Shown: positions 1 to 62,476, numbered from the whole stretch's first letter. The stretch is 63,987 nt of DNA, filler included, from Malassezia furfur (GCA_052055015.1; 6 parts of 6 records of this genome joined end to end with filler, not necessarily neighbours in it); one strand, 5' to 3'. The notes: a model not told the origin generated them from the sequence alone. Program-made: numbers and translations.

Positions 1-407
1 GGCGTCTTGCGCACCTGCGCGTCCCAAGCCGCGCGGTCTTCGCCCGGCTCCAGCGACGCGACGGGTTGTGTGAGGTCGAGCTGCTGCCCGTGTGTGCGCA
101 GGTGCGTCTGTACCGTGTCCAGGAAGAAGTCGAGTGACCCACGCACGAACCGCTCGTCGGATGCCATAAATGCGTGCAGCGGGTCGAAGCGCAGCGGGAA
201 CGAGGCGTGCTTACGCTGCTCGAGCTGCGACGTATGCACAGTGACTGTGTGAGCATGCGCCGACGTACTCGACTCGATGCTCTGCTCGAACGGGCGCATG
301 AGCTGTGCAAAGTCCTGGGCGCCATTTCGCTGTGCGACCGCATCAACGTCAGCACCGCTGAGCACCGCGACGCGCGGGCACAGCGCGCGGTGCACCGTGT
401 CGGCCAT
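1..407 (-). CDS. TRS85: TRAPP III subunit Trs85/TRAPPC8, N-terminal part (runs off window start)
   Basis: ATG 407; MADTVHRALCPRVAVLSGADVD...FAQLMRPFEQSIES, 24-nt intron 245-268, then ITVHTSQLEQRK..FPLRF; resembles the Trs85 N-terminus. Confidence 0.6.
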   Translation of the reverse strand, partial: MADTVHRALCPRVAVLSGADVDAVAQRNGAQDFAQLMRPFEQSIESSTSAHAHTVTVHTSQLEQRKHASFPLRFDPLHAFMASDERFVRGSLDFFLDTVQTHLRTHGQQLDLTQPVASLEPGEDRAAWDAQVRKT

Positions 408-473
408 GGCGGGCGCAGGCGGTAGTCCACGTGGTACCACGTGCGGTGTGGGGCCCCTCCGGCTCTCGACACC

Positions 474-1975
474 ATGGCACCGGAGCCGGTGACCACGGAG
501 AACCTGGCACTGCTCGTCGACGGGCCGTCGCCGACGTCGCCAACATCTGAAACGAGGGATGAGCGTGGCTCGGTTTCGCCCAAGAGCGCACGCACCAGCA
601 CCTCGCTGTCGCGCCGCGCGAGTGCGTCGATGCACTCGATGATCATCGGCTCGATGGTTAACGTCAAGGGCGAGCCGCCGCGCCTGCCCACCGAGAAGCG
701 CAAGCCGCCGCTGTCACTTGCCACTACCTCGGTCAACTTCCGTGGTTTTGTGCAAAAAAGCGGGCCCGTGTTCTACTTCCAGGACAATGTCGAGTCGACG
801 CTCATGTGGGACGACTGGCCCTGGACGGTGATGTGGATGGGCATCTGGGCCGTGCTGTGTACGTATACCGCACTCACACAGCGCTCAACCCGCGCCTCTT
901 GTTTTGCGTGCCGCCCGCGATCCTCGTGACGATCCTGTGCAACACCTACTTTATCCGCTTTCCCCAGACGCAGGTGGAGCGCGATGCATCGCCCGGCGAC
1001 GCGCTGCGCGCCTCGCTCTTTTTCTCGCCGATCCTCAATGAGGAGCCGCGGCACGCACCCATCGAGCCGCACCCGGTTACCGAGGGCGAGATGCAGTACT
1101 TTTACAACATGCGTGATATCCAGAACATGATGCGCCTCGTCATCGACGGCTACGACCACATTGCGCCACTCGTCAAGTACCTCAACTGGTCGAGCGTGCC
1201 GCGAACATTGCGTCTGCTGCAGGCCGCAATCGCGGCCATGGTGTTCATGTTCTTCCTCGGACCCTACATTCCTGTACGGCTCACTTTGTTCCTCGTCGGC
1301 GAAGGGGTGCTCATTATGAACCACCCGTGGGTGAAGCCCACCGCCGAGGCCGTGCACAAGCATCTCAACTCGGGCCGCGCGGCACAGAAACGCATTTTGC
1401 GCAAGCGTCAGCTTACGCAGCGCATCTCGGACCTCCTCGACGAGGACCGCTTGCCCGAGTCTGTCTGGGAGCGCGGCTGGCGCGACGTGGAACTCTTTGA
1501 GAACCAGCGCTTCCGCCCAGGAAAGAAGCGCGGTGGCGGCGAGAAGGACGCCAACTGGTCGGGGAATGCGCTCCAATCCTCTGAGCGCCAGGCCTGGACG
1601 CATGGTAGCGATGGCTATGCCTCGGACAAGGAGGCCGCTATTCAAAACAAGCAGTCGCTTCGCCCCGATGAAGGCTGGGAGTGGATCGACGGCGATGACT
1701 GGCGCATCGACTGGGGCGGCCTATGGAGCACCGTGGGCGTGGACGAAAATGGGTTCCTGTATACCGACAACTCGTGGCAAAACCCGGCGCCGTACGCGTA
1801 CGGCACCGACCCCAAGGCGCCCAAGGCCCCGGCACGGCTCCTGGACGAGGGGGATGCGGACGACGATGAGGACGACGACGAGGCAGACGCGTTGGACGAC
1901 GACATCGTGCCACCCAAATACTTTGCCGTGACACGCCGCAGGCGGTGGCTGCGGCGCGCCGTCAAGGTCGTATAA
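474..1975 (+). CDS. Pex24/Pex29-family integral peroxisomal membrane protein with C-terminal dysferlin-like domain
   Basis: ATG 474; 23-nt intron 859-881 joins ORFs 441..929 and 806..1975; motifs NMRDIQNMM, LNWS, ELFENQR, GWEW, DENGFLYTD, TRRRRWLR. Confidence 0.8.
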
Positions 1976-1991: not shown

Positions 1992-3528
1992 CTACGAATA
2001 CATCCAGCGAGTCTGGTCCTGGTCCATAGACGGCATCGCGTGCGCCTGCGTCTGGGGAGAGTTGAATGCTGTGGGCAGCCCCTGCATACCCAGCGTGGGT
2101 GTGCCGTAGCCGGGCAGAATCGCATTGTTCGGCAGCATAGTTTGGGCGCTCATCGCATTGCCGCCAGGCAGCAGCAGCGACTTGTCGTCGAAACCCATTT
2201 TGCCCTGCAACTGCTGCGGCATACCGAACGCATTGAATGCGGCCTGCTGCTGCTGCTGCATCTTGGGCGTACCTGTGCCTTGGCTCGCCGCGTACATTGC
2301 CGCCTGCTTGGGCTGCTTTGCAGCCGCCGATGCGGGCGGCGAGGTGGCCTCTTCGGTCTTGCGCCGCTTCGTTTTACCACGCCCCTTGTTCCCGGCGTCG
2401 TCCGGCGGCGACGCGGCCACCGTTGGAGTCTCGGGCTTCTTGGGCGCCTCTTTGGTCTTGGTTGTCTTTTTCTTCTTAGTGGAGGAGGCACCCGTCGCAG
2501 TAAGCTCGGGCGCTTTGGCCGTCGTCGCAGCCGCCTCTTTCGGCGAGGCGGTCCCGGCACCGCTACGCGACTTGCGCCAGTTGCGAAGAAACTCGATGCG
2601 AGAAAACCTGCGTAAGATGTGCACACGTACGTCGGCACAAAGGGCCCTTCGGGAGTGAGATCCGCGTTGCCATTGGAGGACGACGAGGTCGTGGCCCAGC
2701 CGCCTTTCATCATCGACATGATTTGCTCGCGCCGCGCATCCTGCGACCGCTCTAGCTCGAGCTCCACCGAGTTGAGCTTGTTCCCGGTGGTCTTGTCGCG
2801 ACGATAGCGGTGGAACGTGGGCGTCTCGGGGTAGTTGTGCGGCGGCATGGTGCTGCTCAGCATCAGGTTGGCCATGCGCATTGCATGGGGGTCCGGCGAA
2901 AGGCACAGCGGCGGTGCAGTGAGGTTGAGGATCTTGGACTCGATTTGGAGCGCCTTTTCGTCGCTCCAGATACCACCATGCTTGGCATCCAAGGACTTGA
3001 GGTCGTTCCAGAGCGCCTCGACGGTTGGCTGCAGCACGATACGGTAGATCTCGACGCCGTTCGGACTAGGGTATGTTTCCTGGCTGCGTAGCAGCGAGCG
3101 GCCCATCATTCCGGACGCACTCATTCCGTACTTTCCGCCATCGCGGAGGTACATGAGGTCGGCGTGGGCCGAGTCCGAGCGGCCATACTCCAGACGGGAC
3201 GACGTATCGGACGTGACGGTCGGCTTCCGGTGGTCATGCACTTCTACCAGCAAACAACCCTCAAAAAAAGGCACACCTGCTTGCTCAAACACATCCACGA
3301 GGTCCACGGGTAGCTGTTGGTCGCGAATGTAGTGCAAAAAGTCCTGCAATCGTGAGGCAGGCCGCGTACCTTTGTGCGCGACTCGAACATAAAGCAACCA
3401 TCCTGCTTCTCGAATCGCATAAACTGCGGATGGATGTGAACGACGAAGCTCGTCGGGTCCTTTCGGTGCCGCTTTAGGATCTGCCGCACCGTCCGCTGGT
3501 AGTTGTACACCGACGCGGACGTCGCCAT
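1992..3528 (-). CDS. SPT20: SAGA subunit Spt20 (Spt20 SEP domain)
   Basis: ATG 3528; introns 3344-3369 (26 nt) and 2608-2630 (23 nt); motifs SFVVHIHPQFMRF, FFEGCLLVEVHDHR, TAPPLCLSPDP. Confidence 0.8.
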
Positions 3529-3578
3529 GGTGGGCCGTGGGGAGGGGCGTCGGAGGAGGGGCCTCCACATGGCATGGA

Positions 3579-5158
3579 CTACTCATCGTCGCTATCGAAC
3601 GTCAGATCGATCACGTCCGCCGTGCGTTCTGCGGGCATCGGGGGCGGTGTGGGTGTAGGCATGTCATTTTCGAGTACCGGATCGTGTGCCATTGCATCGC
3701 CATCGGCAAGAAGGTCGTCTTCATCCATCAAAAAGTCGCCGATGTCCATCGAGTCAGCGCTTTCCTCGGCCGGCGGCGGCACCGACCGCGGTGGCGCTTG
3801 GAGAATGGGCGAGGTGTCGGAGTATTTGCCATCGGTGGTGTGCCACGACCCATCTGACTCCACAAGCACCGTGTCAATGTCGGTCGGCACACGCTGCAGA
3901 ATGTCCTCGACATAGCCGTCCAGTCGCAGCTGCTCCGCCACAACCGTTTGGTTGCACACCGGGCATAACCATTGCGGTGATTGCTCGTTCAGCGAAAAGA
4001 AGCTCTGTGCGTCAAAGCACTGGATGTGCTCGCACAGGTCCGACCGACACGGCGTGACCATCCGCACATAGGTCAGTGGGCATGTCAGTTTCAGCGTCGA
4101 GGCACCCGTCACAATCTCCTCGTCTAGTGCCTGCTTCTGCATATGCGCCAGCACTTCGTCTTTGGTGCGAATTTGTCGCTGCTGCAACTGCGCTGTGAGT
4201 TGCTCGGCGCTTGTAATCCGGCACAGAGCGACGGCCACGGCATGGCGCTGGATGAGAAAGACAAACGTACATTCTGCGCGTTGGCATACGCCAGTTCCAC
4301 CCGGTTCACGCGTCCAGGCTGTAAAAGCAGCGAGCCATTCCGGTTCACGTCCGGCGGGGCGACCCGGCCAGGGTGCTTTTTGCTACCCTTGAGGCTTACA
4401 CCGAGTGCCTTGTCGTTGACGCGCGCCTCGCTGGTAAACGGAAATTCGACCGGTGCCAGATGCCCGCTCGTAATCGACGCCATGTAATGCTCAAACGTCG
4501 TGCAAAAGAGGCGTAGCTGGTAGCGTTTGGGGGTATCTTGAAGAAGCTCGCGCTGTTTTTGCGAGAGGGTGAAGGCAACCGTTACCTGGCGCCGTCCAGA
4601 TGGCGCAGGCGCCTCGGGAACTTGTACAATGCCCGAAACGTACTCGAGCATCTCGTAGAACGGCGACGCACGGAAGCGCAAACGGTGAAGTGCACCCGAC
4701 GACGAGCGGGACGCCATCGCCGGCGCTGGGGACGATGCGCCGTTCGGCGCAGTCGACACAGAGGGTTTTTTAGGAAGCGGGGATGCCTGCATCTCGCTCA
4801 TGCGGCCGTACATTTGCGGCATTCTAGGGGTCAGCGAAGCGTCGACGTACTGGCTCGCTTGCCGGATGTTTTGCAGACCACGCATATACGCGTACAAACC
4901 GAGGGGCGCGATAAGTACCGCAAACTCATGGAGTCGCTTGGGAGTGTGACTGTTCGCATCGACGACCTCGAGGAGCCGCGAGGTCAGATCAGACTTGGTG
5001 CCACTGAGCCGCACATGCGAAGAATACGGCAGTTGCTCGTTAATGAGGCGGATATGGTCCTTGAGCTCGGCGACTTTGAGCGACTTTATAAAGTCTGATA
5101 TATCGTTCACGTTAACATTCTCCATGACGCTCGAGGTGTCGGGTCCGCTGTACGCCAT
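3579..5158 (-). CDS. SIZ1: SIZ/PIAS SUMO E3 ligase (SAP, PINIT, SP-RING/zf-MIZ, C-terminal SIM)
   Basis: 23-nt intron 4248-4270; LRFRASPFY, LTCPLTYVRM..PCR..CEHIQCFDA, WLCPVC, VIDLTFDSDDE. Confidence 0.9.
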
Positions 5159-5219: not shown

Positions 5220-6983
5220 CTATGTGGAGCTATTCGTGCGCTGCGCCAACCGCTCGAGCTCCGCACGGCCCTCCCACGGCCGCCCGTCGTTGTGGATGCG
5301 CTCCCACTCGTCCAACAGGTCCAAGTCCACTGCACGTGCACCCAGTGCAAATTGGCGTTGGCATGCCCCGGGACCCGTAGATGCCTCGGACGCGAGCTGT
5401 GCCTCGTTGCCGTCGCGCGGCGGTGACAAAAAGCGCGTGCTGCGTAGTTGCTCGGGGAAGAACTCTTGGTGCACGGGGTGCGCAAAGTTGGGCTCGTAGC
5501 GATACTCGGCGCCATAGCCCAGGTTGCGCATGAGCGCCGTGGGTGCGTTGCGGATGTGGAGCGGCACGGGGTAGTTGAAATCATTTTGGACCATTTTGAG
5601 TGCCTTCTTCCAGGCGCGATAGGTGCGCGTTGATTTGGGGTATTCGGCGAGCGTCACGACGCAGTGCGATAAGTTGATACCGCACTCGGGGTATCCGACG
5701 ATCTCGCAGGCTCGGTACGTCGCGACGGCCAGATTGAGCATTTCGGGCGAGCAGCAGTCCTCGGACGCGCACACTATCAGCCGCCGTGCAATGAACAAGG
5801 GATCATCGCCGGCAGCAACCATGCGGGCAAGCCAGTAGAGCGCCGCGTCAGGGTTGGAGCCACGGATGCTTTTCTGGGTAAGCGCAGGACTACGCACGTG
5901 CAGGGCACTGATGGTATCGTAGTGGGCGTCGCCGGCACGGTCTGGGTCAGGTCTGGGGCGCAGTGACGTACCGTACTTGAGCGCGGTGCGCTTGAGCGCC
6001 TCCTTGAGGCTGCGTACGTTTTCTTCGTGCGATGCTTTCTCGTCGCCCGTGACGAGCGCGAGCTCGAGCGCATTGAGCGCCGCGCTGGGTCAATGGGTCG
6101 ACATACCGAGCATCGCCGTCGGCACTTTGTGCGATCCATTCGAGGAGTGCGTCGTCGATCCACGGCGCCACAACATCGCCTTCTTCTTTGACTCGCTCGA
6201 GTGCTTGTTTCAGTACCTCGAAAGAGTCCTTGAGCGATAGCTTGGAGAGGACCACGACACTGCGTCAGTTCAGCACGTACCGGAGCCGCGACAGCAGCGC
6301 ACCCTGCAGGCGAAACGACGGATTCTCGGTGGTGGCCGCCAGCAGCGTGATATGACTGCGTAAGCAGCGTGTACGCACCCCTTTTCGAGTGCAGGCAGGA
6401 AGATGTCCTGCTGCGAGCGGTTCAAGCGCTGGATTTCGTCGATGAACAAAACGCTGCGTTGCCCGGTGAGCTGCTGGCGGTGCACGGCCTCATCCATGAC
6501 TTTTTTCATCTCAGTGACAGTCGCAACGGTTGCTGACATCTCAATGAAGCGGTACGGCATGCCATGCGCGTCCGCCGACGCCTCTTTGGTGACAAGACGC
6601 GCGAGCGTCGTTTTGCCGGTGCCGGGCGGACCCCATAGCACCATCGACGGCACCTGACCGCGCTGAAGGAGCGCAAGCAGCGCGCCTCGCACGACGGCCT
6701 CCTGCCCAACGTACTCTTTTAGTGAGCGTGGACGCATGCGTTCGGCAAACGGCCGCGACGACGCCATGGGGTCCTTCCGTGGACGCGTGTCCCGCGCGTC
6801 GCGACGCGTCGGCGCGTCTGGCGGCGCGTCTGCTTTGCGTTTTCCCGGAGGTGGCTCCTTTTTGGGTGAGCTGGACCGCTCGCGCGCGAGACACTGATCC
6901 AGGTGCTCGTTGAGCACGCCGAACGCGACGCGTTCCCCGCAATTTGGGCACGCGACGCTCTCGTACGACGCGGGGGCGGCCAT
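5220..6983 (-). CDS. MGS1: Mgs1/WRNIP1 AAA+ ATPase with N-terminal UBZ zinc finger
   Basis: ATG 6983; CPNC..LNEHLDQCL, PFAERMRP, GPPGTGKTT, FIDEIQR, AATTENPSF, HYDTISALHKSIRGS; introns 6356-6378, 6260-6280, 6085-6106, 5942-5971, 5874-5897. Confidence 0.93.
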
Positions 6984-7050: not shown

Positions 7051-7659
7051 ATGAGCAAGCCCAGCGGCCATCTCGCGAGCGAAGAGGTGCTGAACAAGAA
7101 GGTGCGTGACGTGTCTGACCGCAGCTGGATCTTTGCATCAGCAATGCCATTGTGAAGACCGGTATCGGTTTCAGCGCCGGTGTGGTGCTCTCGGTGGTGC
7201 TCCTGAAGCGTACGTCCTTCTCCGCGTACTGACGCAGGCCGCTCGTGGCCCGTTTGGCTCGGCACCGGTTTTGGCCTGGGTGCAGGCTACACCGACTGTG
7301 AGCGCTCATTCAACCCTGTCGCCGTTCCTGGTGTGCGTGTGATCCCGAGCAGCGCTGCGGCCAATGTGCCGGACACGCAGATGGGCAAGATCCAGCAGCG
7401 TGTTGGCGAACTGTTTGGCCAAGCGAAGGACGAGACCGAGCAGAAGGTGCCTGCGGCTACGCAAAATATCCGTGACCAGGTGCAGAACCGCTTTGCCGAC
7501 CTCACCAACAAGGGCCGCGACGTCGTCGAGCAGCAGGTGAGCAACCTGCAGGACGCCGCGCACGACGTCGCCTCCAAGTTCCAGGAGAAGACGCAGGACC
7601 TGACGGATGCGGTTAAGCAGACCGAGCAGAAGGCCGAGGACAAGGTGCGCCGCATCTAA
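7051..7659 (+). CDS. MIC10: MICOS subunit Mic10 with extended helical C-terminal tail
   Basis: Introns 7102-7124 (23 nt) and 7210-7237 (28 nt) give SEEVLNKKLDLCISNAIVKTGIGFSAGVVLSVVLLKRRSWPVWLGTGFGLGAGYTDCERSFNP; Gly-rich TM motifs typical of Mic10. Confidence 0.9.
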
Positions 7660-7675
7660 CGGCGGGCATTCGTAG

Positions 7676-7940: not shown

Positions 7941-9039
7941 GGGTATCCAGCCATGCACGCAGATCCTGCTCGCGTTCTGCCAACGACGACACATGCAGCG
8001 TCTGCAGCTCGCGCGCGACCTCGGTGTCGGCGCCGCGCACTATCGACCAGTCGGCGTGCCGTTTGCATCGCCGCTTGGGCTCGCCGCAGACTACCTCGGG
8101 GCCTGTGCCGTCGTGCTGCCCCGCAAAGCGCCCGTCGAGCGGCGCCTCCTCTTGGAGCATCGTGCGGCCCGCTGGCGATGTCGCCCACGCCCATAGCGGC
8201 TCGTCATCCCATGCGAGACGCGCATCAAACCCGCACCGCGGGATGCTCGCATCACGCTGCTTCCCCACGTCCTCCTCCGCCGCAGGTGGCAGCGTCGACA
8301 GCCGGTCCTCGGCGAGCTGCAGCAGCTTGCCGCGCACCGCAAGCACGTCAAGCAGCACATTCCCACGCGCGCTCTCGGTACGCACACGTGCGAGCTCCGC
8401 GGCCCACTGCGCGTGCTCTTGCTTGCCGTCGAGCGGCGTCGCATGCGCGCGAGCATACGCACCGACACTCGTGCCTGGCGGTGGCCCCGCGATTGGCGCG
8501 AGCGTACGGATGCCGTCCTGCATGCGCGCGAGCCATGCATGGGTCGACTCCTGTGTGGATGCACCCTGGGCGAGTGAGGGACGCGTCCATACCGCATATC
8601 CGCGTGGGTGGTGCGCCGAACGCACGGCGTCGGTTGTGAGCCGCGTGGCGGCGTTGGGCGCGTCATCGAGTGCGAGCACGCGGTCACGCACGGTGCGCAT
8701 ACCACATTCATCCGAGCAGTACAGTGAGATGGGCAACCGCGCGGCGTTGGTGCATCTGGGGCTCTTGCACGGCTGCTTGTACGACGTACGTGCATCGGTG
8801 CCTGGGTGAGCGGAGCGACATACGTGTCTCGCACGACGAGCAAATGAACTGGTCGATACGCTCCACGGCATCGTCATCAATGTGCAGGCATGACGCGTGA
8901 AACCACTCGTCGCAGTGGTCGCACGCGATCATCACGCGGTCGTCCTCTGGGTCAGTGGTCGCGACATACCGAGCTCCGTGCGGCATACGCAGTACCGCTT
9001 GGCCTCCGTAGGCGGTGCCGCATCTATCGGGCCATGCAT
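7933..9039 (-). CDS. SPP1: COMPASS subunit Spp1/CXXC1-like PHD-finger protein
   Basis: ATG 9039; introns 8947-8969 (23 nt), 8802-8823 (22 nt); YCVCR..VMIACDHCDEWFHASC, YCSDECG, CGFDARL, C..RRCKRHADW. Confidence 0.85.
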
Positions 9040-9130: not shown

Positions 9131-10340
9131 ATGGAAGAACGGTCGTGGATGGAGCACGTGGGTCGTGCCGCCGAGTCGCTGCTGGACACAGCGTATGCGC
9201 TACTCTCGGCGCTGCCGTGCGGCACGGGGGCCGCACACGTTGAGCTCAACGGGCGCACGTACGAGGTCGTGAAGCTGCTTGGCGAGGGCGGCTTTAGCTT
9301 GGTGTACCTGGTGCGCGACCCCGCATCGGGGCAGCAGTTCGCGCTGAAAAAGATCCGATGCCAATATGGCGAGGCGTCAGTGCGCGATGCACTCGCCGAG
9401 GTCGATGCAATGAACCGCTTCCGCGGTCCCAATGTGATCCGCGCGTGCGACACGGCTGTTGTGCGCGACGATGCACGCGCGTCGGTGCTTGGCAATGTGC
9501 CGACGCACGACGAGGAGAGCGGTCAGGGTCGCGTGGTGTACATCCTGCTGCCGTACTATGCGAATGGGAATCTACAGGATGCCATCAATGCGCACGTCAT
9601 CCATGCGACGCACTTTGACGAGCGGACGCTGCTGCACCTGTTTCTCGGCGCGTGCCGCGGCGTGCAGACGATGCACCACTATGTGCCGCCGCGCACGGGC
9701 GACGAGCGCACGGCAACGGCCACTGCACCACAGGGCGAGAGCGCCGCGCTCCTGTTTGATGCCGAGTCCGACGCGGCGTACCCTCCGGCACCGCCGATGC
9801 GCGTGGCCAATGCGCAGGAAGCCGTCGATGCAGCGGCGCGCGAGGCGTATGCGCACCGCGACATCAAGCCAGCGTATGTTGCTTTACTAACTCAGCAACA
9901 TTATGATTGCCGACGACCGGCGCACGGCGGTGCTGATGGACTTTGGCAGCACGCTCAAGGCCAGAATACCCATCCAGTCGCGCAAGGAGGCCGTTGCGCA
10001 TCAGGATTTGGCCGCCGAGCGCTCCAGCATGCCTTACCGTGCGCCAGAGCTGTTCGACGTGAAGACAGACGTGGTGCTCGACGAAAAGGTGGACATCTGG
10101 GCGCTGGGATGCACGCTGTATGCCATGGCCTACCTCCACTCGCCGTTCGAGACGGCGTCCACAACGGAGCAGGGCGGCTCGCTGGCGCTTGCCGTAACGA
10201 ATGGAGCCTACAAGTTCCCTGCTAACGACAGCTACTCGGACGTAGTGCGCGACGTGATCCGGTCGTGCTTGCAGACGAATCCGGCAAAGCGCCCCTCGAT
10301 TGAGGCGCTCATCGCACAGGTGGAAGCGGCACTCGCCTAG
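9131..10340 (+). CDS. ENV7: NAK-family Ser/Thr kinase Env7/STK16
   Basis: LGEGGFSLVY, ALKKI, HRDIKPAN (22-nt intron 9874-9895), MDFGS, MPYRAPELF, DIWALGC. Confidence 0.9.
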
Positions 10341-11241
10341 GCAGTCGCCTTCCACGTCGTAACCATACCACCAATCGCCGCGATCGCACCAAAGAAGCCG
10401 ACCCACGACTCGGCCATCACACCAGACGGCACGGCCCAGTGCACGCTTGCCGGCAGGTAGCCAAAGTAGATCCAGAAGTTGGTGACCAGCGCGTCCTTGC
10501 GCTCCTGGATCTCGTCCCACATGCGCCGCGTGGTCTGCTGCTCCTCGCTGAGCGGCTCGGCCTTTCCGTCCGTCTTTTTGCCCGCGTGCGGCTGCGGGTG
10601 GCCGCGGCTGCGCTCGAGTGCCTTGGCACGCGAACGGAGCAGGCGGTTGTCCTCGACAATGTGCACAAACTGAAGCACAACGTACAACAGCCACAGGCGC
10701 AGCGCATGCTTCCACAGCCAGCCCTGGCGCTGCGGCGAGATGTTGAGCACCTTGTGGTAGCCGAGATACGCCAAGGCCTCCATAGGGCAGTAGGCGACCA
10801 TCGACCACGCCTGGATGCGTTCCACCTGCAACAGCAACTTGGTGGGTGGCGGCGTGCGCTCGAGCGAGATGAGCCATTGAATCATGGGCACAATGCCCCA
10901 AATACGGTACAGAATGCGCGCGTCGCCGATGAGGTCGGCGAGTGCCGTCAGGCGCGCAACACCGCTCGGCACCTTGCTAGCGGTCGCGAGGCTCAGGCGC
11001 GCACGCAGTCCGTGCAGAAAGAGCAGCACGCCGACAATTGCCTTGGAGCTATATTGGACCGTCATCAGGGACTGGGGTCAGCAGCCTGGCCACCCACCTT
11101 ATCAGTGCCCGTCCAGGTGCTCAGGAAGCGGCCAAGGTGGTCCAGCGTCTTGGACGGCGGCACATGGCGGAAGACGCCCAGCACTTCGTCAATCGCTGTA
11201 CGCTTGTTCGTGCGCGCAGGAGCTCGTGCCGGCTGGCTCAT
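10337..11241 (-). CDS. PEX11: Pex11-family peroxisomal membrane protein
   Basis: ATG 11241; 26-nt intron 11072-11097; FLSTWTGTDKSLMTVQY, IGDARILYRIWG, YLPASVHWA. Confidence 0.75.
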
Positions 11242-48978: not shown

Positions 48979-50416
48979 CTAAGCAAAATAGAGATCGACC
49001 AACACTGTGGTAAGCTTCGCGCGACGTACTGGTCGTGACACCCAAGATGATTCTGATGGTTAGTTTGTAGGACGTACTCTAGCACAATCAAGATGATGAC
49101 AATAATCTCGAGCCACTCGGAATGACTTGATGTCACCTGGTCCTTGAGCAACTGGAGCATATCCTGGAGAACCTCGACACGAATGTTGAGCAAGTCGATA
49201 CGTTGCGGGATCTCCAAGTAGCTCCGTGCAGCAGAGTACAGCGGCTCCAGGTCGGGTTGTGCCCAGAAAATTTCCGGAGAGTCCACGATCGAGCCGACCA
49301 GGTGGATGTTCATGCGCAGGATGAATAGGTGTCCGATGTGTTTCATGATATCGACCGGGGGCATGCCAACTTTGCCACTTTCTGCGATACTCCGGGGAAT
49401 ATCTTTGGTGGTATCGATTGTTGCTTCGATCACGCTCTCGAAGAAGCTGATCTTCGTCGACTGGGCGAGCGCATGCGATAGAGACAGCTTGGTCATGTAG
49501 CTCGAGCCGCGGCGTAGCGTGATGACATCGTTGTAGATCCTGGTGTGAGTTGTGCGGAAACATACCGGCTGTAGTCGGCCAGGTACCAGTTCAGGTCCTC
49601 GCTTTCCACGTCCTCTAGCGCAAGTCGCTCCACCTCAAACTTGCGGATCTCGCGCAAGAGGCGCTTCTCCTCAGTCTGCGACATGCCCCAGATCACGATC
49701 GTGCCGTACTCCATGATGAAGATTTCTGGCACGAAGTGCAAGGTGGATGTCGGCTTCTTGGGCGTGCCTTGATTCCCCGTATTCCGCGCGCCTTCTTCGC
49801 CTTCCTCGCTGATGGTTTGTAGCCCGTGGTTGCTTGCGTCAGTAAAACACATACCTCGACGCATTCTCCTGCAGTTCGGGGATCCCGAGCAGGTCGCCCG
49901 TCTTTGCGTCGCCGCCGCCGTGCGAGCGGCTGCGGTGCATCGCGAAGGGTGACGAGCTGGGGACGCCGCGCGCCTCGTCCACGGATTGATACGTATACGT
50001 GGTGTACACGCACTCATCGAAGCGCAAAACATTCGTATGGTGCGACTCCTTGCGCGCCTCGAGCCACTGGACCAGCTCGCGCATCCGGTACGAGGTTGCC
50101 GTGCTGTAGGCGGTGACGCGCGGCAGGCGCGAGCGCGCCTTGCGCGTGAGACGCAGGGCATCGCGACGCATACTTCCCTCCGGGATGTGCTCGAGGCGAG
50201 CGAGGTTGGCGTCGTCCACATCTCCGTCGTCGTCCCAATGGAGATCGGGGTGGACGTCGCCGTCCATATCCTCGAGCGACGACTTGGACGAGGGCTCCGT
50301 GGTCGGCGCCTCAGGCAAGATTTTGTGCTTAATCGCACCCTTTGTCGATCTGGAATGAGTGTTTCGTCTACGCACCGCTGCGGCCCCGCTTTCGGGGCGT
50401 ACGTATTGCTGCTCAT
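48979..50416 (-). CDS. RMD1: Rmd1/DUF155 family protein
   Basis: LPRVTAYSTATSY, EYGTIVIWG, KLSLSHALAQSTK, LEIPQRIDLLN, LEIIVIILI; introns 50350-50375, 49833-49854, 49540-49565, 49053-49077, 49005-49029. Confidence 0.9.
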
Positions 50417-50508
50417 GGCGGCAAGGCAAAAGCACCGAGCTGTGCGGCCGACCCGGCACAGATCGGGATCGGGCCTCGTGGCTGGGCCCACGCCCAGGGT
50501 GCGTTGCA

Positions 50509-51429
50509 TTACAGGGAGGTGTAGTCTACAAAAAGGCCCTCGTCTTGCACGATCGTGGCTTCGACGAGGAAACGCAGTGCGCCAGGGGCGTGTAATGGTG
50601 CACAAAGATCGGAGACTGGTCGTGGCGAGTCTAGACGCAAGGGCGTCTCGCCTCGACCTGCGCCGGCTTGTATGGTCGCATCGAATCGCGCTAACCGCCG
50701 TACGCGGCGCGAGTCGAGGTAGCGCTGTCGCGCCGCGGAGGGCATCTTGCCGTTGGACGTAGCGGCGGGGATATCTACTGCTTGGGTGGCGGGTCGGGGG
50801 GTGTCCTTGTCGGTGTCCCGCACGAATGGCAAGGTCAGGTCAGTGGCATGGGTGGGTGAAACCAGCTCGATAGCGAGTGCGTCGGTGGAAATGGTCGTAT
50901 CGATCGCCTCTGCTGGCGGCAGCCCCCTTGTGAGGTCGAGGAGGCTGCGCACCTCGTCTTCGGTGGTAGCAATGTGCAAGGTATCAAATCCCGTGGTCTC
51001 GGAAGTGTCTGTGGATGTCTTGGTGATTAGCCGTTGGAGTGAGACGTGCGCGCCAACGGTCTGGGCCATGGCACACAGGTAGGTCAAGCTCTGACGCATG
51101 TCGTCCAGCGATATGCCCACGAGCGCACCGTCGTCGCGCACGCCCAGTTCGTACACACACGAGCCGCCGCCCTCGGTGAGCCGCCAGCTAAGCTGAGTGA
51201 CAAGCCGATCGAACCGGTCAGCGGACACGGGCAGGATTTGCAGCTTGTACTCGATATTGCCACTCTCGTCTTCCTCCGGAACGAGCGGCGAAAGTCCCGC
51301 ACGGGGGGCCGGAGCACATGGCGGTTGGGGAGAGCGCGCAGCTCCATTTTCGTGTGACGTCCAGGGGGATCTTGATCTTTGTGAGCATGCGACGTACGAG
51401 TGGGGCGCGAGCAGCTCCTCGCCAAACAT
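50509..51429 (-). CDS. GTPBP1/2 N-terminal-domain protein without GTPase domain
   Basis: PEEDESGNIEYKL, LVTQLSWRLTEGGG, YELGVRDDGALVG; no P-loop before stop. Confidence 0.7.
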   Translation of the reverse strand: MFGEELLAPHSYVACSQRSRSPWTSHENGAARSPQPPCAPAPRAGLSPLVPEEDESGNIEYKLQILPVSADRFDRLVTQLSWRLTEGGGSCVYELGVRDDGALVGISLDDMRQSLTYLCAMAQTVGAHVSLQRLITKTSTDTSETTGFDTLHIATTEDEVRSLLDLTRGLPPAEAIDTTISTDALAIELVSPTHATDLTLPFVRDTDKDTPRPATQAVDIPAATSNGKMPSAARQRYLDSRRVRRLARFDATIQAGAGRGETPLRLDSPRPVSDLCAPLHAPGALRFLVEATIVQDEGLFVDYTSL

Positions 51430-51526: not shown

Positions 51527-52851
51527 ATGTCGACGCGGGGTGTGTGGGCGTGCGCGACGTCGTGGGCGTACCGGTTGTGCTTGGGTGCCGAGGGCTATCG
51601 CTTTCTCGTGCCGTGGCTTTTACTGTGTGATGGCCTGCTGACTGCGCTGATTGTCCAGCGTGTGCCCTACACTGAAATTGACTTCACGACGTATGTGGGG
51701 CAGGCGCGTCTCTTTCTCGAAGGCGAGCGCGTGTATACGCGGCTGGACCCCGTGAATGGCTCGGGGCCTTGCGTATACCCCGCTGGACACCTGTATGTGT
51801 ATGCCGCGCTAGCCTCCTTGAGCAAGGGCGCGTCCGACTTGGTCCCTGCGCAGCTCTTCTTCGCGGCGCTGTACCTGGCGACGTTTGCGCTAGTCGCGCA
51901 GCTATACCGCCTCGCCGGTGCACCGCCCATCCTCTTGGTGTTCTTGGTGCTGTCCAAGCGGCTGCATTCCATCTTTGTGCTGCGCATGTTCAACGACCCT
52001 GTTTGCATGTTCTGGGTGTATGGAAGCATCTACCTTCTTTGCACCCGCCGCTGGCGTCTTGCGTGTGTGGTGTACAGGTGCGTGGGCGTACTCACCAAGT
52101 TTGGGTCTCGGTGTCAAGATGAATGCGCTGTTGTTCTTGCCCGGCCTGTGCGTTGTGCTGTTCCGTGCGCTGGGCGCTGTCCAGACGTTGGTGTCGCTGG
52201 CGATCATCGCTGGGGTGCAAGCGATCCTGGGCGCACCCTTTCTGCTTACCAACTGGCGTGCCTACGTGAGCTCGGCATTTGACTTCTCGCGCGTCTTTCT
52301 GTACAAATGGACCGTCAACTGGCGGTTCCTCAACGAGGCGACGTTTTTGGAGGCGCGCACGGCGCGTGTCTTGCTGTGTGCGCATGCTGCGCTGTTGGCC
52401 GCGTTTGGTCTATTCCGCTGGACTGGCATCGGCACCCAGGGCGTATCCTGGATCACGCGGCGCTGGCACGGCGAGCGGCCACTGATGCTGACTCCGGCGT
52501 GTACGTCTTGCGCTCACCCAGACATCATCGTCACGCTGTTCACCAGCAATTTGATCGGGGTCGTGGTAGCGCGCAGCTTGCACTACCAGTTTTACAGCTG
52601 GTATGCCCATGCATTGCCCCTTTTGTGCTGGATGGCCCTACCTTGGGCGGCGGCGAGGTACGTGGGCGCACGCAGCGATGTGCTTATGCAGTGTTGTGGT
52701 GCTTGGCGCAGTCGAGTATGCGTGGAACGTGTTTCCCTCGACCCCCCAGTCATCGCTGGTGTTGCTGGGCGCGCACGCCGTGCTAATTATGGGGCTATGG
52801 ACATCACGGCGTACACCCTGGGATGCGGTGGTACGGGCGCGGATCAGGTGA
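51527..52851 (+). CDS. ALG3: Dol-P-Man alpha-1,3-mannosyltransferase Alg3
   Basis: VPYTEIDF, GPCVYPAGH, SKRLHSIFVLRMFND, KWTVNWRF, RSLHYQFYSWY, EYAWNVFPST; introns 52078-52099, 52501-52521, 52658-52691. Confidence 0.95.
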
Positions 52852-54344: not shown

Positions 54345-55214
54345 ATGGTGCGTCGTGGGCGACTGACGCAGCTGAAAGCAAGTGCCCCCCACCTGATCTG
54401 GGCCGCTGGCCACTTCATCACATTTTTTGCTGGTCTCCGTTACCTGTTGACGATCGCTACGTTCTCGTGGACCGGCTATGATGCGTGGTACCGCGTCGCG
54501 TACTTTGGCGCGATCGTGAGCTACGGTGTGGTGATCTACAAGAGCTTTGGTGTGCCGCGCACGGACAAGGCCTACGTGCAGCGTGCGCTGATGGATGAGA
54601 ATGTGCAGTACCTCGTGATGGCCGTGTACTGGTGCTATGTGAAGCCTATCTCGAGTACGTTGCGTGTGTCTGACGATGCAGTTACGCTGATCCCCTACAT
54701 CACCTTTTCGCTGTTCCACCTGCTCACCTTTACGCGCACCACCATCCTGCCGGCGATGGTTTCGCCGAGCGCGGACAGCAGTGCGCCGCCGCCGCACAGC
54801 CAGCTGTCCAAGTCGATCCAGACGTGGGTGAAGGAGAACTACGACCGTGCGATGCGTTTTGTGTCGTACGCCGAGGTGGTGATCTTTGTGCGTGTGCTGG
54901 TCGGCGCGCTGCTGTTCCGCAACTCGCTGCTTGCGCCGCTGCTGTACGCCCACTTTTTGCGCCTGCGCTTCTACATGAGCAGCTTCACGCGCGCCGCGTT
55001 CCACCATGTGCGCTCGGAGCTGGACGGCCTTGTGCAGCACCCGTCGTGCCCGCCCGTGGTGCGCAAGGGCTACTTTATGCTGACCGACCTCGTGACGCGG
55101 TATGCCTCGACGGTGCTGAGCATCAACAAGGACCAGCCGACGCCGGCCACGGCGGCGCGTCCGACGCCCCAGTCGAGTACCCCGGCGGACCCGACCAAGA
55201 CCAAGTTGCGCTGA
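54345..55214 (+). CDS. POM33: Pom33/Per33 (TMEM33) ER/nuclear pore membrane protein
   Basis: IWAAGH, SYGVVIYKS, DENVQYL, FSLFHLLTF, FLRLRF; introns 54348-54371 (right after ATG) and 54655-54681. Confidence 0.85.
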   Translation: MVRRGRLTQLKASAPHLIWAAGHFITFFAGLRYLLTIATFSWTGYDAWYRVAYFGAIVSYGVVIYKSFGVPRTDKAYVQRALMDENVQYLVMAVYWCYVKPISSTLRVSDDAVTLIPYITFSLFHLLTFTRTTILPAMVSPSADSSAPPPHSQLSKSIQTWVKENYDRAMRFVSYAEVVIFVRVLVGALLFRNSLLAPLLYAHFLRLRFYMSSFTRAAFHHVRSELDGLVQHPSCPPVVRKGYFMLTDLVTRYASTVLSINKDQPTPATAARPTPQSSTPADPTKTKLR

Positions 55215-58210: not shown

Positions 58211-61200
58211 ATGAAGGAGCTAGTGTATGTGATGATCTGCTAACCCAAGTACGCAGGATGCACCCAAGAAAATGTACGCCGCTCACCGCTAACGCAGCAA
58301 AAACATTCAGTTCGGCGTCATGTCGCAGGAGGAGATTGTGAACCTCGCCGAGCTCGAGGTGGTCACGCGCGACATCTATGACCTGCCGAACCGGCAGCCA
58401 CGCGTCGGAGGTGTGCTCGACCGCCGCATGGGCGTGAGTGACAAGGTATCGACGTGTCAGACGTGCGGGCACCGTATGGCCGACTGTGTGGGCCACTATG
58501 GCTACATCAAGCTCGTGCTCCCCGTGTTCCACATTGGCTTCTTCAAACACGTCATCAGCATTCTACAGATGGTGTGCAAGTCGTGTGCCGGCATCTTGCT
58601 CGAGGAGAGCGACCGCCGGCGGTTTTTGCGCCGCTTCCGGCGGCCCAACTTGGAGAATCTGCAGCGCACGCAGACGTTCAAGGCAGCCAATGCCGTGGCA
58701 CGTAAGACGCTCTACTGCCCACACTGCGGCGCGACGAATGGCACTGTGAAAAAGGTCGGCGCGCTCAAAGTGGTCCACGAAAAGTTCCGCCAAAAGAAGA
58801 CAGAGGAGGAGTTGCTCGAGTTCCGCAAAACGTTCACCACCGCCGTCAGTATGGGCGGCGGCGAGCTCGGCCCGCATTTGAGCAAGGCCCAGGAAGATCT
58901 GAACCCGCTGCGTGTGCTTGACCTATTCAAGCGGATCAGCGACGAGGACTGCGAGCTGCTTGGCCTCAAGCCCGAGTACGGCCGGCCGGAGGAGTACATT
59001 TGGCAATACATTTGTGTGCCGCCCGTGTGCATCCGCCCAAGCGTTGCACAGGACGGCGCGACGAACGAGGACGACTTGACGGTGAAGCTGACCGAAATTG
59101 TGTTCACGAACAACATCATCAAATCGGGCCTGTCCAAGGGCAGCAAGGGGACCACCACGGCACAGCTCGTGGAGCAATGGGACTTTCTGCAGTTGAGCGT
59201 CGCGATGTACATCAACTCGGAGATGCCCGGCGTGCCGCCAATGAGCGGACACAAGCCGATCCGCGGCTTCTGCCAGCGGCTCAAGGGCAAGCAGGGCCGG
59301 TTCCGTGGCAATCTGTCCGGCAAGCGTGTCGACTTTTCTGCCCGCACGGTCATTTCGCCGGACCCCAACCTGGCGATTGACGAGCTGGCGGTGCCCGAGC
59401 GCGTCGCCAAGATCCTGACCTATCCTGAGCGTGTTTTTGCGCACAATATCGAGGCGATGCGCCAGGCCGTACGGAACGGCACCGATACACACCCTGGGGC
59501 CAATTACCACATCAACGGACGCGATGGGTTCAAGCGTTTCCTTAAGTTCCCGCAGATGCGTGAGGAGCTCGCAGCCAATTTGCACGTCGGCGACATTGTC
59601 GAGCGGCACATCCGTGACGGCGACATTGTACTCTTCAACCGGCAGCCAAGTTTGCACAAGCTGTCCATCATGTGCCACCGCGTCAAGGTACGGCCGTGGC
59701 GCACTTTCCGGCTGAACGAGTGCGTTTGCAATCCGTACAACGCAGACTTTGATGGCGACGAGATGAACATGCACGTGCCGCAGACCGAGGAGGCGCGCAC
59801 CGAGGCGCTGACGCTGATGGGCGTCAAGCACAACCTCGTGACGCCGCGCAACGGTGAGCCGATCATTGCGGCGATCCAAGACTTTATCACCGCCTCGTTC
59901 CTCCTGTCGCGTCGCGATCGGCTGTTCACGCGGCCCGAATTTGTGCAGATCTGCTCCTACTTTGGTGACGCGACGCTGCACATTGATGTGCCGCCACCCG
60001 CGATCCAAAAACCCGTTCGACTCTGGACGGGGAAACAGCTGTTCAGCGTGCTCATCCGCCCGAACCGTGCGTCCAACGTCCTCGTGAACCTTGAGGCACG
60101 ATGCCGCACATTTGAGAAGCCGTCGGGTAACCACATCAAGGAGATGTCGCCTAACGACGGCTACCTCGTCATCCAAAACTCCGAGGTGCTGTGTGGTGTG
60201 ATGGACAAGGCCACGGTCGGTGACGGCAACAAGCACTCGCTGTTTGGCGTAATTCTGCGCGACTATGGCCCTGACGCCACGATCGAGGCGATGAACCGCC
60301 TTGCCAAGATGTGTGCGCGCTGGCTTGCCAACCAGGGCTTCTCGCTGGGGATCAGCGACGTGACGCCGGGGCAGCACCTGCGCCGCACCAAGGACGAGAA
60401 TGTGGAGGTGGCCTACCGCCAGTGCCGCGACCTGATCGAGCTCGCGAAGCGCGGCAAGCTCGAGAACCTGCCTGGGTGCAACCAGGAACAGACGCTCGAG
60501 AGCAAGATCTCGGGCGTGCTGTCCGGTGTGCGCAGCGACGTCGGCGAGATTTGCATGACCGAGCTGAGTCGGCACAACGCCGCGCTGATGATGGCCGTGT
60601 GTGGCTCCAAGGGCTCCAAGATCAACGTCGCGCAGATGGTCGCGTGTGTCGGACAGCAGATTATTTCGGGATCGCGTGTGCCCAACGGTTTCCAGGATCG
60701 CTCCTTGCCGCATTTCCCAAAAAAGAGCAAAGATCCGCCGAGCAAGGGCTTTGTGCGCAACTCCTTCTTCTCCGGCCTTGAGCCCACCGAGTTTCTCTTC
60801 CACGCAATCAGTGGGCGTGAGGGACTGGTTGATACGGCGGTCAAGACCGCCGAGACAGGCTACATGCAGCGCCGCCTCATGAAGGCGCTCGAGGACCTCT
60901 CGACGCACTACGACTTTTCGGTGCGCAACTCAGTAGGGGGCGTTGTGCAATTCCTGTACGGCGACGACGGCCTTGATCCCGCCGAGCTCGAGGGGAATGC
61001 ACTGCCGGTCGAGTACCATCGTACCTTCCGGCACGCCACCGCCAAGGCCGCGCACATCCCGGCGCGCAGCCTGATGCCGTTCGAGATCCGGGAGCGAGTC
61101 GACGCAACGCTGCGTACGGACCGTTTCCGGCGCGTGTGCACCGACAAGTACCTGGAGCAGATCCGTGCGTTTTGCGACGTGCAGATCGCCGAGCATGTTG

Positions 61201-62476
61201 CGCGCACGCGCGAGGCCTATGGCATGTTCCCCGCGCGCGTGCGCGAAGGCGACTGGGATGAGGAGACAGACTTGTCGCTCGGCGCCGATGCCGCGCAGTG
61301 GGCTATCGTCGCCAACAAGGCGCGCGTCACCGAGCCGATTCTGGACGAGTTCCTGAACGAATGCTGGGAAAAGTACATGAAGGCGAAGATCGAGCCGGGC
61401 ACGGCCGTCGGTGCGGTGGGTGCGCAGTCGATCGGCGAACCGGGCACGCAGATGACGCTCAAGACGTTTCACTTTGCGGGTGTCGCCTCGATGAACGTTA
61501 CACTCGGTGTGCCGCGCATCAAGGAGATCATCAATGCCGCCAAGGTGATCAACACCCCGATCATTGCCGCCAAACTCGTGAGCGAACGCAGCGAGCAGGC
61601 AGCACGGATCGTCAAGGGCCGCATCGAGAAGACCTACCTCGGGGACGTGGCAGCGACCATCGAGGAGGCCTGGGCAGGGACGCACACCTACCTCGGTGTG
61701 AACATCGATATGGACGCCATCCAGAAGCTCCAGCTGGAGGTGACGCTGGACGACATCAAGGTCGCCATTGCGCAGATGCCCAAACTCAAGATCCGGCCGG
61801 AACGGATCACGATCCTCCCGCGCAAGAACCAGCTCAAGATTCACGTGTACCCGGACGAAAAGGAAAAAGATGTATATTATACGCTGAAGCAACTCAAGCG
61901 GCTCCTGCCCAAGGTGGTGATCAAGGGCATTCCGCACGCCTCGCGCGCCGTGATCAGCGACGAGAAGGGCGAGCGCAAGCTGCTGGTCGAAGGTTACGGC
62001 CTCAAGGAGGTGATGACCACCGAGGGCGTGATCGGCACCCAGACCCAGACAAACCATGTCATGGAGATGCAGCAGGTGCTCGGCATTGAGGCGGCCCGCA
62101 ACGCCATCTACCGTGAAATCGATTACACGATGGCGTCGCACGGCATGTCGATCGACCCGCGCCATGTGATGCTCCTCGCAGACGTCATGACGTACAAGGG
62201 TGAGGTGCTCGGTATCACGCGCTTCGGCGTCGCCAAGATGAAGGACTCGGTGCTGATGCTCGCCTCGTTCGAGAAGACGACGGACCATCTCTTCGATGCT
62301 GCGCTCTACGGCAAGTCGGATTCGATCGCCGGTGTGAGCGAGAGCATTATTATGGGCAACCCGGCGCAGACCGTCGGTACCGGCATGTACGTATCCGTTG
62401 CACTGACCCCAGGCCCGCACTCGTCTCGCCCAAGCCCACGCTGCCGCCGCTGCGCCCGCTCCTCTTTGACGCCTAG
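58211..62476 (+). CDS. RPC1: RNA polymerase III largest subunit
   Basis: MKELV start with introns 58225-58249, 58274-58297 and 62387-62412; RLKGKQGRFRGNLSGKRVDF, YNADFDGDEMN, SFEKTTDHLFDAA; no CTD. Confidence 0.96.

Follow-up and report, generated by a model that had tools for sequence, protein, structure and literature searches.

The window analysed here, 63,987 nucleotides (nt) of Malassezia furfur DNA (GCA_052055015.1), has a G+C content of ~61 % and harbours, among others, genes encoding homologues of ORMDL, ALG3, RMD1 (DUF155), Mgs1/WRNIP1, Rer1, COX17 and the largest subunit of RNA polymerase I. The present study concerns the introns of these genes. In total 56 introns were curated, lying on the coding strand at ~1.4 introns per gene model, and 45 of them measure 21-30 nt. 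A preliminary description of this DNA had claimed over 40 GT-AG introns of 21-30 nt between positions 245 and 62412, whose removal restores conserved proteins. The first and last curated introns lie at these limits, and the four examples that it cited (6260-6280 and 16401-16422 on the minus strand, 859-881 and 52501-52521 on the plus strand) were all recovered. The genes of the window almost certainly contain ordinary spliceosomal GT-AG introns of the U2 type, reduced to little more than the minimal signals. Besides GT and AG ends, an extended donor and a branch motif, these introns show restoration of protein or reading frame upon removal, by homology in 26 cases and by a frame test in 19. 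The homology support consists of alignments to homologues for 17 introns, in ORMDL, ALG3, RMD1 and Mgs1/WRNIP1, and of exon-by-exon Pfam matches for nine. Among the 45 introns of 21-30 nt, 24 are backed by homology, 15 by the frame test and six mainly by motif, in-frame stop or a public model.

For ALG3, RMD1 and Mgs1/WRNIP1, local alignment scores to homologues (16 of 120 listed proteins for ALG3, 16 of 120 for RMD1 and 20 of 150 listed representatives for Mgs1/WRNIP1) were summed with all introns removed ("spliced") and with a single intron retained ("retained"). The introns supported in this way, together with those of ORMDL, are the following.

13004..13029, minus strand: ORMDL intron, 26 nt; gapless homologue alignment across the junction
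13127..13152, minus strand: ORMDL intron, 26 nt; Pfam ORMDL 49-96 in exon 3, then 99-130 in exon 4; gapless alignments
13302..13327, minus strand: ORMDL intron, 26 nt; Pfam ORMDL 12-47, then 49-96; alignments; also placed by the motif-blind gene finder
13441..13464, minus strand: ORMDL intron, 24 nt, a multiple of three (3n); gapless to proteins P0010, P0009, P0003 and P0005
52078..52099, plus strand: ALG3 intron, 22 nt, AAG acceptor; 13838 spliced, 6666 retained; Pfam 2-153, split codon, 155-264
52501..52521, plus strand: ALG3 intron, 21 nt, 3n, no stop; 13838 spliced, 13664 retained; gapless junction; moderate support
52658..52691, plus strand: ALG3 intron, 34 nt, branch motif CTTAT; 13838 spliced, 12796 retained
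49005..49029, minus strand: RMD1 intron, 25 nt, following a 23-nt microexon; rebuilds the conserved C-terminus
49053..49077, minus strand: RMD1 intron, 25 nt, preceding microexon 49030-49052; homologue alignment
49540..49565, minus strand: RMD1 intron, 26 nt; 19999 spliced, 8837 retained; Pfam DUF155 1-50, then 58-174
49833..49854, minus strand: RMD1 intron, 22 nt, AAG acceptor; 19999 spliced, 5557 retained
50350..50375, minus strand: RMD1 intron, 26 nt; 19999 spliced, 569 retained
5874..5897, minus strand: Mgs1/WRNIP1 intron, 24 nt; 17625 spliced, 17265 retained; gapless junction
5942..5971, minus strand: Mgs1/WRNIP1 intron, 30 nt; 17625 spliced, 17295 retained; read-through leaves a 10-residue insertion in Pfam AAA_assoc_2
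6085..6106, minus strand: Mgs1/WRNIP1 intron, 22 nt, branch motif TTGAC; 17625 spliced, 7305 retained
6260..6280, minus strand: Mgs1/WRNIP1 intron, 21 nt; in-frame TGA if retained; 17625 spliced, 17316 retained; gapless junction
6356..6378, minus strand: Mgs1/WRNIP1 intron, 23 nt; 17625 spliced, 4943 retained; also placed by the motif-blind finder

With its four introns removed, the ORMDL protein aligned without gaps over all four junctions to five of the 14 proteins found, and the related open reading frame (ORF) call P0012 carries a 9-residue insertion exactly at junction 13441-13464. Retention of any one of the five RMD1 introns lowered the summed score from 19999 to 569, 5557, 8837, 19300 or 19575. 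The spliced RMD1 C-terminus is a gapless, near residue-for-residue match to proteins of Sympodiomycopsis, Sporisorium and Cryptococcus. An 18-nt candidate in Mgs1/WRNIP1 (6716-6733) scored higher when left unspliced (18265); it was rejected and serves as a negative control.

Judging from some public gene models, the true junctions could belong to longer introns enclosing the short ones. At the 13127-13152 junction nine conserved residues are absent from P0005, the public ORMDL protein of M. furfur, which would fit the annotation of a longer intron there, and in ALG3 the motif-aware gene finder picked a 91-nt intron (52601-52691). However, these nine residues occur, conserved, in all four other homologues aligned, one of them a glomeromycete protein, while the 91-nt alternative scored 13005 against 13838 for the 34-nt intron 52658-52691, by which it was replaced. 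Pfam coordinates moreover abut exactly at short junctions, and longer enclosing introns are considered very improbable.

Public Malassezia models are instead likely to be mis-annotated at short introns, as comparison of the suspect models P0135, P0005, P0017, P0022, P0024 and P0136 with window segments 47841-51429, 12914-13711 and 51527-52851 suggests. The expectation in the preliminary description that gene models go wrong at such introns was borne out by the shortened ORMDL protein and by several other cases. An M. brasiliensis 'rmd1' protein of 907 residues fuses three genes that are adjacent in the window and lacks the microexon-encoded C-terminus, and one public RMD1 model starts at an internal Met. 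Among four named Malassezia ALG3 proteins, the alignment stops just before the third junction in two and just before the second in one. Unspliced ORF calls from relatives show insertions of 7-9 residues exactly at the positions of in-frame introns. The M. furfur RMD1 model does use both 25-nt introns, and current pipelines thus find some short introns.

Related sequences share intron positions with the window but not intron lengths. In a related metagenome contig (L001) the RMD1 gene has a 34-nt intron (2192-2225) at the position of 50350-50375 and a 29-nt intron (3518-3546) at that of 49005-49029; it lacks three of the five RMD1 introns, including 49053-49077, and its coding sequence is continuous there. 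In locus L007 (3490-3609) introns of 53 and 44 nt, at the positions of 49053-49077 and 49005-49029, respectively, flank the same 23-nt microexon as the 25-nt introns of the window. Shared positions with differing lengths and sequences between conserved flanks are typical of real introns. As to its source, the window can be assigned, as nuclear DNA, to a yeast of the M. furfur group. The ORMDL piece shares 96 % of its residues with an M. furfur protein, and for an RMD1 exon the identity amounts to 99 % with M. furfur and 100 % with M. brasiliensis, other parts of the same M. brasiliensis protein matching at just 81-95 %.

All 293 stop-to-stop ORFs of at least 100 codons in the window were scanned against Pfam, and single domains proved to be divided between adjacent ORFs of differing frame, the breaks falling exactly on intron candidates. 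Gene models were then divided at each candidate junction, and of the 80 resulting exon pieces, 77 were searched individually; the pieces left out were two of alcohol dehydrogenase (ADH), from a false-merge model, and a polymerase exon of 1362 residues. For nine introns, in the genes for Rer1, the MPN/JAB protein, Mic10, TMEM33, a kinase, Spt20 and COX17, the matches abut or start at the junction.

3344..3369, minus strand: Spt20-like gene intron, 26 nt; Pfam Spt20_SEP 2-33, then 36-174 (near abutment); also placed by the motif-blind finder
7210..7237, plus strand: Mic10 (DUF543) intron, 28 nt; DUF543 23-49 in exon 2, split codon 50, 51-75 in exon 3
9874..9895, plus strand: protein kinase gene intron, 22 nt; Pfam Pkinase resumes at profile position 128 with residue 1 of exon 2
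17281..17303, minus strand: MPN/JAB and MitMem_reg gene intron, 23 nt; Pfam JAB 3-82, split codon 83, 84-116
27293..27322, plus strand: COX17 gene (27221-27476) intron, 30 nt; strict motif; Pfam COX17 6-47 of 47 from the first residue after the acceptor
44083..44116, plus strand: Rer1 intron, 34 nt; Pfam Rer1 4-47 in exon 1, split codon 48, 49-102 in exon 2
44362..44387, plus strand: Rer1 intron, 26 nt; Pfam Rer1 49-102, then 103-148, exact abutment
44528..44551, plus strand: Rer1 intron, 24 nt, 3n; Pfam Rer1 103-148, split codon 149, 150-166
54655..54681, plus strand: TMEM33/Pom33 intron, 27 nt, 3n, no stop; Pfam TMEM33 19-104, split codon 105, 106-239

Exon 1 of the kinase ends in HRDIKP and exon 2, after one split codon, begins with N, rebuilding what we take to be the catalytic-loop motif HRDxKPxN. 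The small gene for the COX17 copper chaperone (27221-27476, plus strand) was missed by both gene-finder runs and was revealed by its intron motif.

A strict intron pattern, GT[AG][CT]GT-N3-18-CTNAC-N1-4-[ACT]AG with a total length of at most 35 nt, matches 40 distinct acceptor sites in the whole window. In 200 dinucleotide-preserving shuffles the mean was 0.92 sites (standard deviation 0.97, maximum 4) and in the reversed sequence no site was found; the strict motif is thus ~40-fold above chance. Its density is 6.3 per 10 kb in the window against 0.27 per 10 kb in 262 kb of the other 72 loci. A looser pattern is much less specific (69 sites against a shuffle mean of 26.05), and a loose intron-like regular expression gave 88 hits, nested ones included, with a length peak at 22-26 nt. 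Of the 40 strict sites, 37 coincide exactly with curated introns accepted on other grounds and one is a nested alternative donor within the 34-nt Rer1 intron; the remaining two gained support later, as the COX17 intron 27293-27322 and the 21-nt intron 51377-51397.

As an independent check only, a motif-blind gene finder was run which uses GT, AG and codon usage; it is crude and misses in-frame introns. It placed 21 introns of at most 45 nt, 13 of which are identical to motif sites and eight misplaced. The length of open frames around the candidates is uninformative by itself, the DNA being GC-rich with long ORFs in many frames. A frame test was applied with a codon-usage model trained on 13 long Pfam-supported ORFs, the flanks being taken from the spliced model. 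Across each intron that is not 3n the best frame shifted by the length modulo 3 with clear margins, and all 19 non-3n introns without homology support passed.

These results bear on the view that the introns are a chance or compositional artefact, or stem from assembly errors or programmed frameshifts. A G+C content of ~61 % does make spurious ORFs as common as the above count of 293 indicates, so that open flanking frames mean little alone. Against this stand the enrichment over shuffles, the empty reversed sequence, frame shifts equal to intron length modulo 3, homologous proteins that align gaplessly only after intron removal, and related contigs in which the introns at shared positions differ in length; an artefact of this kind is hardly credible.

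The introns resting on the frame test, a gene model or the motif are listed below (two figures for a margin refer to the frame test).

245..268, minus strand: TRAPP Trs85-like gene intron, 24 nt, 3n, no in-frame stop; strict motif; coding flanks; weaker class
859..881, plus strand: Pex24p-like gene intron, 23 nt; frame shift of 2 as predicted, margins 30/36; stop in read-through; motif-blind finder
2608..2630, minus strand: Spt20-like gene intron, 23 nt; margins 42/23; strict motif
4248..4270, minus strand: PIAS-type SUMO ligase intron, 23 nt; margins 38/34; PINIT and zf-MIZ on either side in different frames
4824..4850, minus strand: PIAS-type SUMO ligase candidate intron, 27 nt, 3n, no stop, TAG acceptor; strict motif only
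7102..7124, plus strand: Mic10 intron, 23 nt; margins 18/42; 17-codon first exon; stop if retained
8802..8823, minus strand: PHD-finger gene intron, 22 nt; margins 42/25; strict motif
8947..8969, minus strand: PHD-finger gene intron, 23 nt; margins 35/41; stop if retained
11072..11097, minus strand: PEX11 intron, 26 nt; margins 37/50; stop if retained
16401..16422, minus strand: Tsr1 intron, 22 nt; in-frame stop if retained; margins 17/36; motif-blind finder
17769..17790, plus strand: intron of gene 17631-19572 (no Pfam match), 22 nt; margins 12/29; strict motif
17913..17935, plus strand: intron of gene 17631-19572, 23 nt; margins 28/31
18008..18032, plus strand: intron of gene 17631-19572, 25 nt; margins 27/43
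21174..21200, minus strand: TB2/DP1/HVA22 (Yop1-like) gene intron, 27 nt, 3n; stop 3 nt into the read-through; margins 72/55
21218..21256, minus strand: Yop1-like gene intron, 39 nt, 3n; in-frame stop; margins 68/53
21350..21386, minus strand: Yop1-like gene intron, 37 nt; downstream margin 64; stop if retained; upstream exon of 12 nt; tentative
21399..21474, minus strand: putative first intron of the Yop1-like gene, 76 nt; gene-finder model only; tentative
23237..23258, minus strand: CSN7/PCI-like gene intron, 22 nt; margins 18/37; motif-blind finder
26517..26562, minus strand: acidic ribosomal protein (Ribosomal_60s) intron, 46 nt; gene model; motif-blind finder
26800..26907, minus strand: acidic ribosomal protein intron, 108 nt; gene model; stop if retained
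26966..27008, minus strand: acidic ribosomal protein intron, 43 nt; gene model; first exon of 11 nt; tentative
27981..28017, plus strand: DUF202 gene intron, 37 nt; margins 47/22; stop if retained; DUF202 from residue 1 of the next exon
28286..28313, plus strand: DUF202 gene intron, 28 nt; margins 29/11; stop if retained
44763..44793, minus strand: ubiquitin hydrolase (UCH) intron, 31 nt; margins 50/15; stop if retained
51377..51397, minus strand: intron of gene 50631-51429, 21 nt, 3n; strict motif; gapless to the start of public protein P0135
53697..53730, minus strand: intron of gene 52844-54152 (no Pfam match), 34 nt; margins 56/33; stop if retained
54348..54371, plus strand: candidate intron at the TMEM33/Pom33 gene start, 24 nt, 3n, no stop; strict motif; upstream exon weakly coding; weaker class
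58225..58249, plus strand: RNA polymerase I largest subunit intron, 25 nt; strict motif; stop if retained; first exon of 14 nt; tentative
58274..58297, plus strand: RNA polymerase I largest subunit intron, 24 nt, following a 24-nt microexon
62387..62412, plus strand: RNA polymerase I largest subunit intron near the 3' end of the gene, 26 nt; margins 43/11; motif-blind finder

In the polymerase gene an ORF opens at the acceptor of 58274-58297, and the Rpb1 domain 1 match covers it from residue 3 onwards; the first Met of the exon after 58297 comes after the start of this domain, and an upstream exon is therefore needed. Aligned to P0135, which is itself a gene prediction, intron 51377-51397 gave a score of 896 when spliced, 879 when retained and 875 with the 27-nt alternative 51371-51397 that it replaced. 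Removal of 26517-26562 joins the acidic tail of the ribosomal protein to a last exon of eight residues.

Several points weigh against this assignment of ordinary, minimal U2-type introns. Excision, junction use and branch point were all deduced from DNA and homology. The near-universal CTNAC is partly a selection effect, most candidates having first been found by a regular expression that requires a branch motif, and the homology-proven intron 6085-6106, with TTGAC, was missed by it. Intron 52501-52521 of ALG3 is favoured by just ~11 score units per homologue. The tiny first exons 58211-58224, 27009-27019 and 21387-21398 are model-dependent. Introns 4824-4850, 54348-54371 and 245-268 are backed by the motif alone or by the motif and a rough Pfam gap; at 245-268 the Pfam Trs85 match reads through the intron as an insertion of ~8 residues, and 4824-4850 is ambiguous with a score of +0.26 per codon as coding sequence. 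Nine of the 13 3n introns of at most 45 nt have no in-frame stop, and 51377-51397 is a tenth such case.

It could accordingly be proposed that some stop-free 3n candidates are not obligatory introns and represent motif-like coding segments or facultatively retained introns yielding two isoforms. Retention of a stop-free 3n intron would result in an in-frame insertion and not in a truncated protein. In favour of this proposal are the three cases just named, the 26 chance sites expected for the loose pattern, and an 18-nt segment of the GrpE gene (22236-22253) which fits that pattern yet is best read as coding: one continuous unspliced GrpE match runs through it, it scores +0.46 per codon, and its exon pieces do not abut. 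This segment was rejected as an intron. By contrast, fewer than one match to the strict pattern is expected by chance, and other support exists for 39 of its 40 sites, while the stop-free 3n introns 13441-13464, 44528-44551, 54655-54681, 5874-5897 and 5942-5971 were confirmed by Pfam abutment or gapless alignment. We regard the proposal as unlikely, while giving it more weight than any other alternative to obligatory minimal introns.

The anatomy of the introns was computed on the first 54 curated, a 30-nt and a 21-nt intron having been added later. Of these, 43 measure 21-30 nt and 35 measure 22-26 nt, the size class named as most frequent in the preliminary description, the minimum being 21, the mean 29 and the median 25 nt. 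Lengths (number of introns in brackets) are 21 (2), 22 (8), 23 (8), 24 (6), 25 (4), 26 (9), 27 (3), 28 (2), 30 (1), 31 (1), 34 (3) and 37 nt (2), and 39, 43, 46, 76 and 108 nt once each. The peak thus lies below 30 nt, and the distribution extends up to 108 nt, in a ribosomal-protein gene. Among the introns of at most 45 nt the length modulo 3 leaves remainder 1 in 21, remainder 2 in 17 and remainder 0 in 13; the small 3n deficit may reflect harder detection only, the sample being too small to judge 3n depletion.

All 54 introns have GT and AG ends, by construction of the search, with 13 of them placed by the motif-blind finder. The consensus that had been proposed, GTRYGT...CTNAC-N1-4-(C/T/A)AG, was found to hold. 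The donor is GTRYGT in 49 of 54 (GTACGT 31, GTATGT 10, GTGCGT 8, others 5). CTNAC occurs in 50 of 54, a frequency biased upward by the search pattern, as CTGAC (23), CTCAC (15), CTAAC (8) or CTTAC (4); the other four introns have CTCAT, CTTAT or TTGAC. The introns end in CAG in 49 cases, in AAG in three and in TAG in two. The A of the motif lies 5 nt from the 3' end in 31 introns, 6 nt in 13 (hence at most 6 nt in 44 of 54) and 7 nt in four. In 40 of the 51 introns of at most 45 nt it lies 16-21 nt from the 5' end, and never less than 16. The spacer between donor hexamer and branch motif is at least 6 nt, though the pattern allowed 3-5, and it is 52 % pyrimidine. On average less than 3 nt separate the branch motif from AG, which makes a polypyrimidine tract impossible, in line with the earlier claim that there is none. 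The introns have a G+C content of 0.60 compared to 0.61 for the window. U12-type (minor) introns are marked either by AT-AC ends or by a donor of the type GTATCCTT combined with a branch site resembling TCCTTAAC. GTATCC is absent among the 54 donor hexamers. Neither an Rfam nor a tRNA scan of the window returned anything, and no snRNA gene was found in it.

The introns follow a minimal layout, in which a 6-nt donor GTRYGT (mostly GTACGT) precedes a spacer of at least 6 nt, CTNAC, usually one base, and CAG; these elements add up (6+6+5+1+3) to 21 nt, the length of the smallest introns. The A of CTNAC would be the branch point. In that case the lariat loop would span 16-21 nt and the branch would be 5-6 nt from the 3' splice site; the figure of ~16 nt for the loop holds only if branching occurs in the conserved CTNAC. 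Under this geometry the 3' site would simply be the nearest AG downstream of the branch, chosen without a polypyrimidine tract, and recognition would presumably occur across the intron, not across the exon. It is possible, although rather doubtful, that the spacer of at least 6 nt and the mostly single base before CAG represent a hard architectural floor and that the Malassezia spliceosome routinely makes loops of 16-21 nt with a 3' site 5 nt from the branch, on signals that are strong and GC-neutral. If so, 3' site choice would be independent of U2AF and a polypyrimidine tract, and U1 and U2 would hardly be able to sit side by side on such introns. Malassezia, which is culturable and transformable, could then be a tractable model for minimal-intron splicing.

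Among other organisms, Giardia and Trichomonas join the branch sequence and the AG into one conserved 3' block only a few bases long. Their introns are very few and their spliceosomes divergent, whereas the introns of the window are pervasive and occur in a basidiomycete. The introns of the ascomycete Yarrowia lipolytica measure hundreds of nt on average. A gap of one nucleotide separates branch motif and 3' site in this yeast (PMC13309789), a likeness to the window, where the branch motif is nearly on the 3' site and CTNAC-N-CAG occurs in 31 of 54 introns. The same paper gives a strict ACTAAC, a GTGAGT donor and length bins to 1826 nt for Yarrowia (PMC13309789), unlike the window with its free third motif position, GTACGT donor and whole introns of ~25 nt. 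In size the introns of the window share the class below 30 nt with those of ciliates, microsporidia, dicyemids and myxozoans; averages of 25 nt in Paramecium (10.1101/2021.08.05.455221) and medians of 22-27 bp in myxobolids (PMC13644364) have been reported. Myxobolids and Dicyema are described as having reduced splice-site motifs (PMC13644364), while in the window all three signals are strong and the introns are as GC-rich as exons (0.60 against 0.61). In the available text of the same 2026 paper, the list of taxa with introns below 30 bp does not mention Malassezia (0 occurrences; PMC13644364).

Within the genus the scale is the same. The curated annotation of M. sympodialis (Zhu et al. 2017) lists 5350 introns, which average 30 bp and of which 99 % are supported by RNA-seq (PMC5389616, Table 2), to be compared with the mean of 29 nt in the window, and its supplement holds a cumulative intron-length plot (PMC5389616). 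Other reports give a median of 30 for M. restricta (PMC9241646), the use of minimum intron lengths of 20 and 15 in an annotation of M. restricta (PMC6473144), and a review statement that Malassezia genes hold 'very short introns' (PMC7426719). The older M. globosa annotation gives mean introns of 76-79 (PMC4634964), values which probably reflect the same annotation problem. The novelty implied by the preliminary description could thus not be upheld, very short Malassezia introns (PMC5389616) as well as a near-fused branch and 3' site in Y. lipolytica (PMC13309789) having been published. The passages and supplement text available from PMC5389616 contain no splice-site or branch consensus, no branch-3' distance of 5-6 nt and no 21-nt floor, and no description of Malassezia branch and 3' site geometry or of a 21-nt floor was found in the literature within scope, which left aside subscription journals, figures and most full texts. 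The phenomenon is essentially known for the genus; what the window adds is a consensus and a geometry, not a discovery. In Malassezia, a genus with skin commensals and opportunistic pathogens among its members, gene prediction fails unless introns of ~21 nt are allowed. Introns near the smallest size for three side-by-side signals, in an organism that can be grown and transformed, also open the lower size limit of splicing to experiment.

The longest introns (43-108 nt) belong to the acidic ribosomal protein gene (26493-27019, minus strand) and the Yop1-like gene (20743-21528, minus strand). With its 108 nt, intron 26800-26907 shows that not every intron of the window is tiny; highly expressed genes may retain longer introns. 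Microexons lie between short introns at 49030-49052 (minus strand, 23 nt), 58250-58273 (plus strand, 24 nt), 21387-21398 (minus strand, 12 nt) and 21201-21217 (minus strand, 17 nt). Homologues confirm the first of these, in RMD1, which is also conserved in L007; the remaining three depend on the gene model.

Not all of the 67 introns proposed by the motif-aware gene finder were accepted. Candidates 29967-30075 and 30123-30142 result from a false merge of two ADH paralogues, and 19551-19638, 19790-19833 and 20019-20046 overlap the PNO1 gene on the opposite strand. A further seven (35035-35064, 37010-37044, 58034-58075, 50667-50703, 7645-7715, 8566-8625 and 20792-20858) are without consensus or support, and 28386-28411 was neither accepted nor rejected.

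The window also harbours two tandem secretory lipase genes of the LIP family and three tandem paralogues of zinc-type alcohol dehydrogenase with a fourth elsewhere. These ADH and lipase regions (28945-32797 and 38823-42201, plus strand; 45472-46599, minus strand) all appear to be intronless, and two secretory lipase and four zinc-ADH genes fit the genus Malassezia. The open-ended gene 62590-63987 (plus strand) has RRM domains. It was considered as a splicing factor, but its best solved relative is nucleolin, and it more probably encodes a nucleolar protein of the Nsr1/Gar2 type. Runs of 44 N occur in five pairs spaced ~11.3 kb apart (11259-11358, 22600-22699, 33937-34036, 45269-45368 and 56590-56689); they resemble deliberate masking, not assembly gaps, and genes across them are cut (e.g. 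55280-56587 and 22700-23411).

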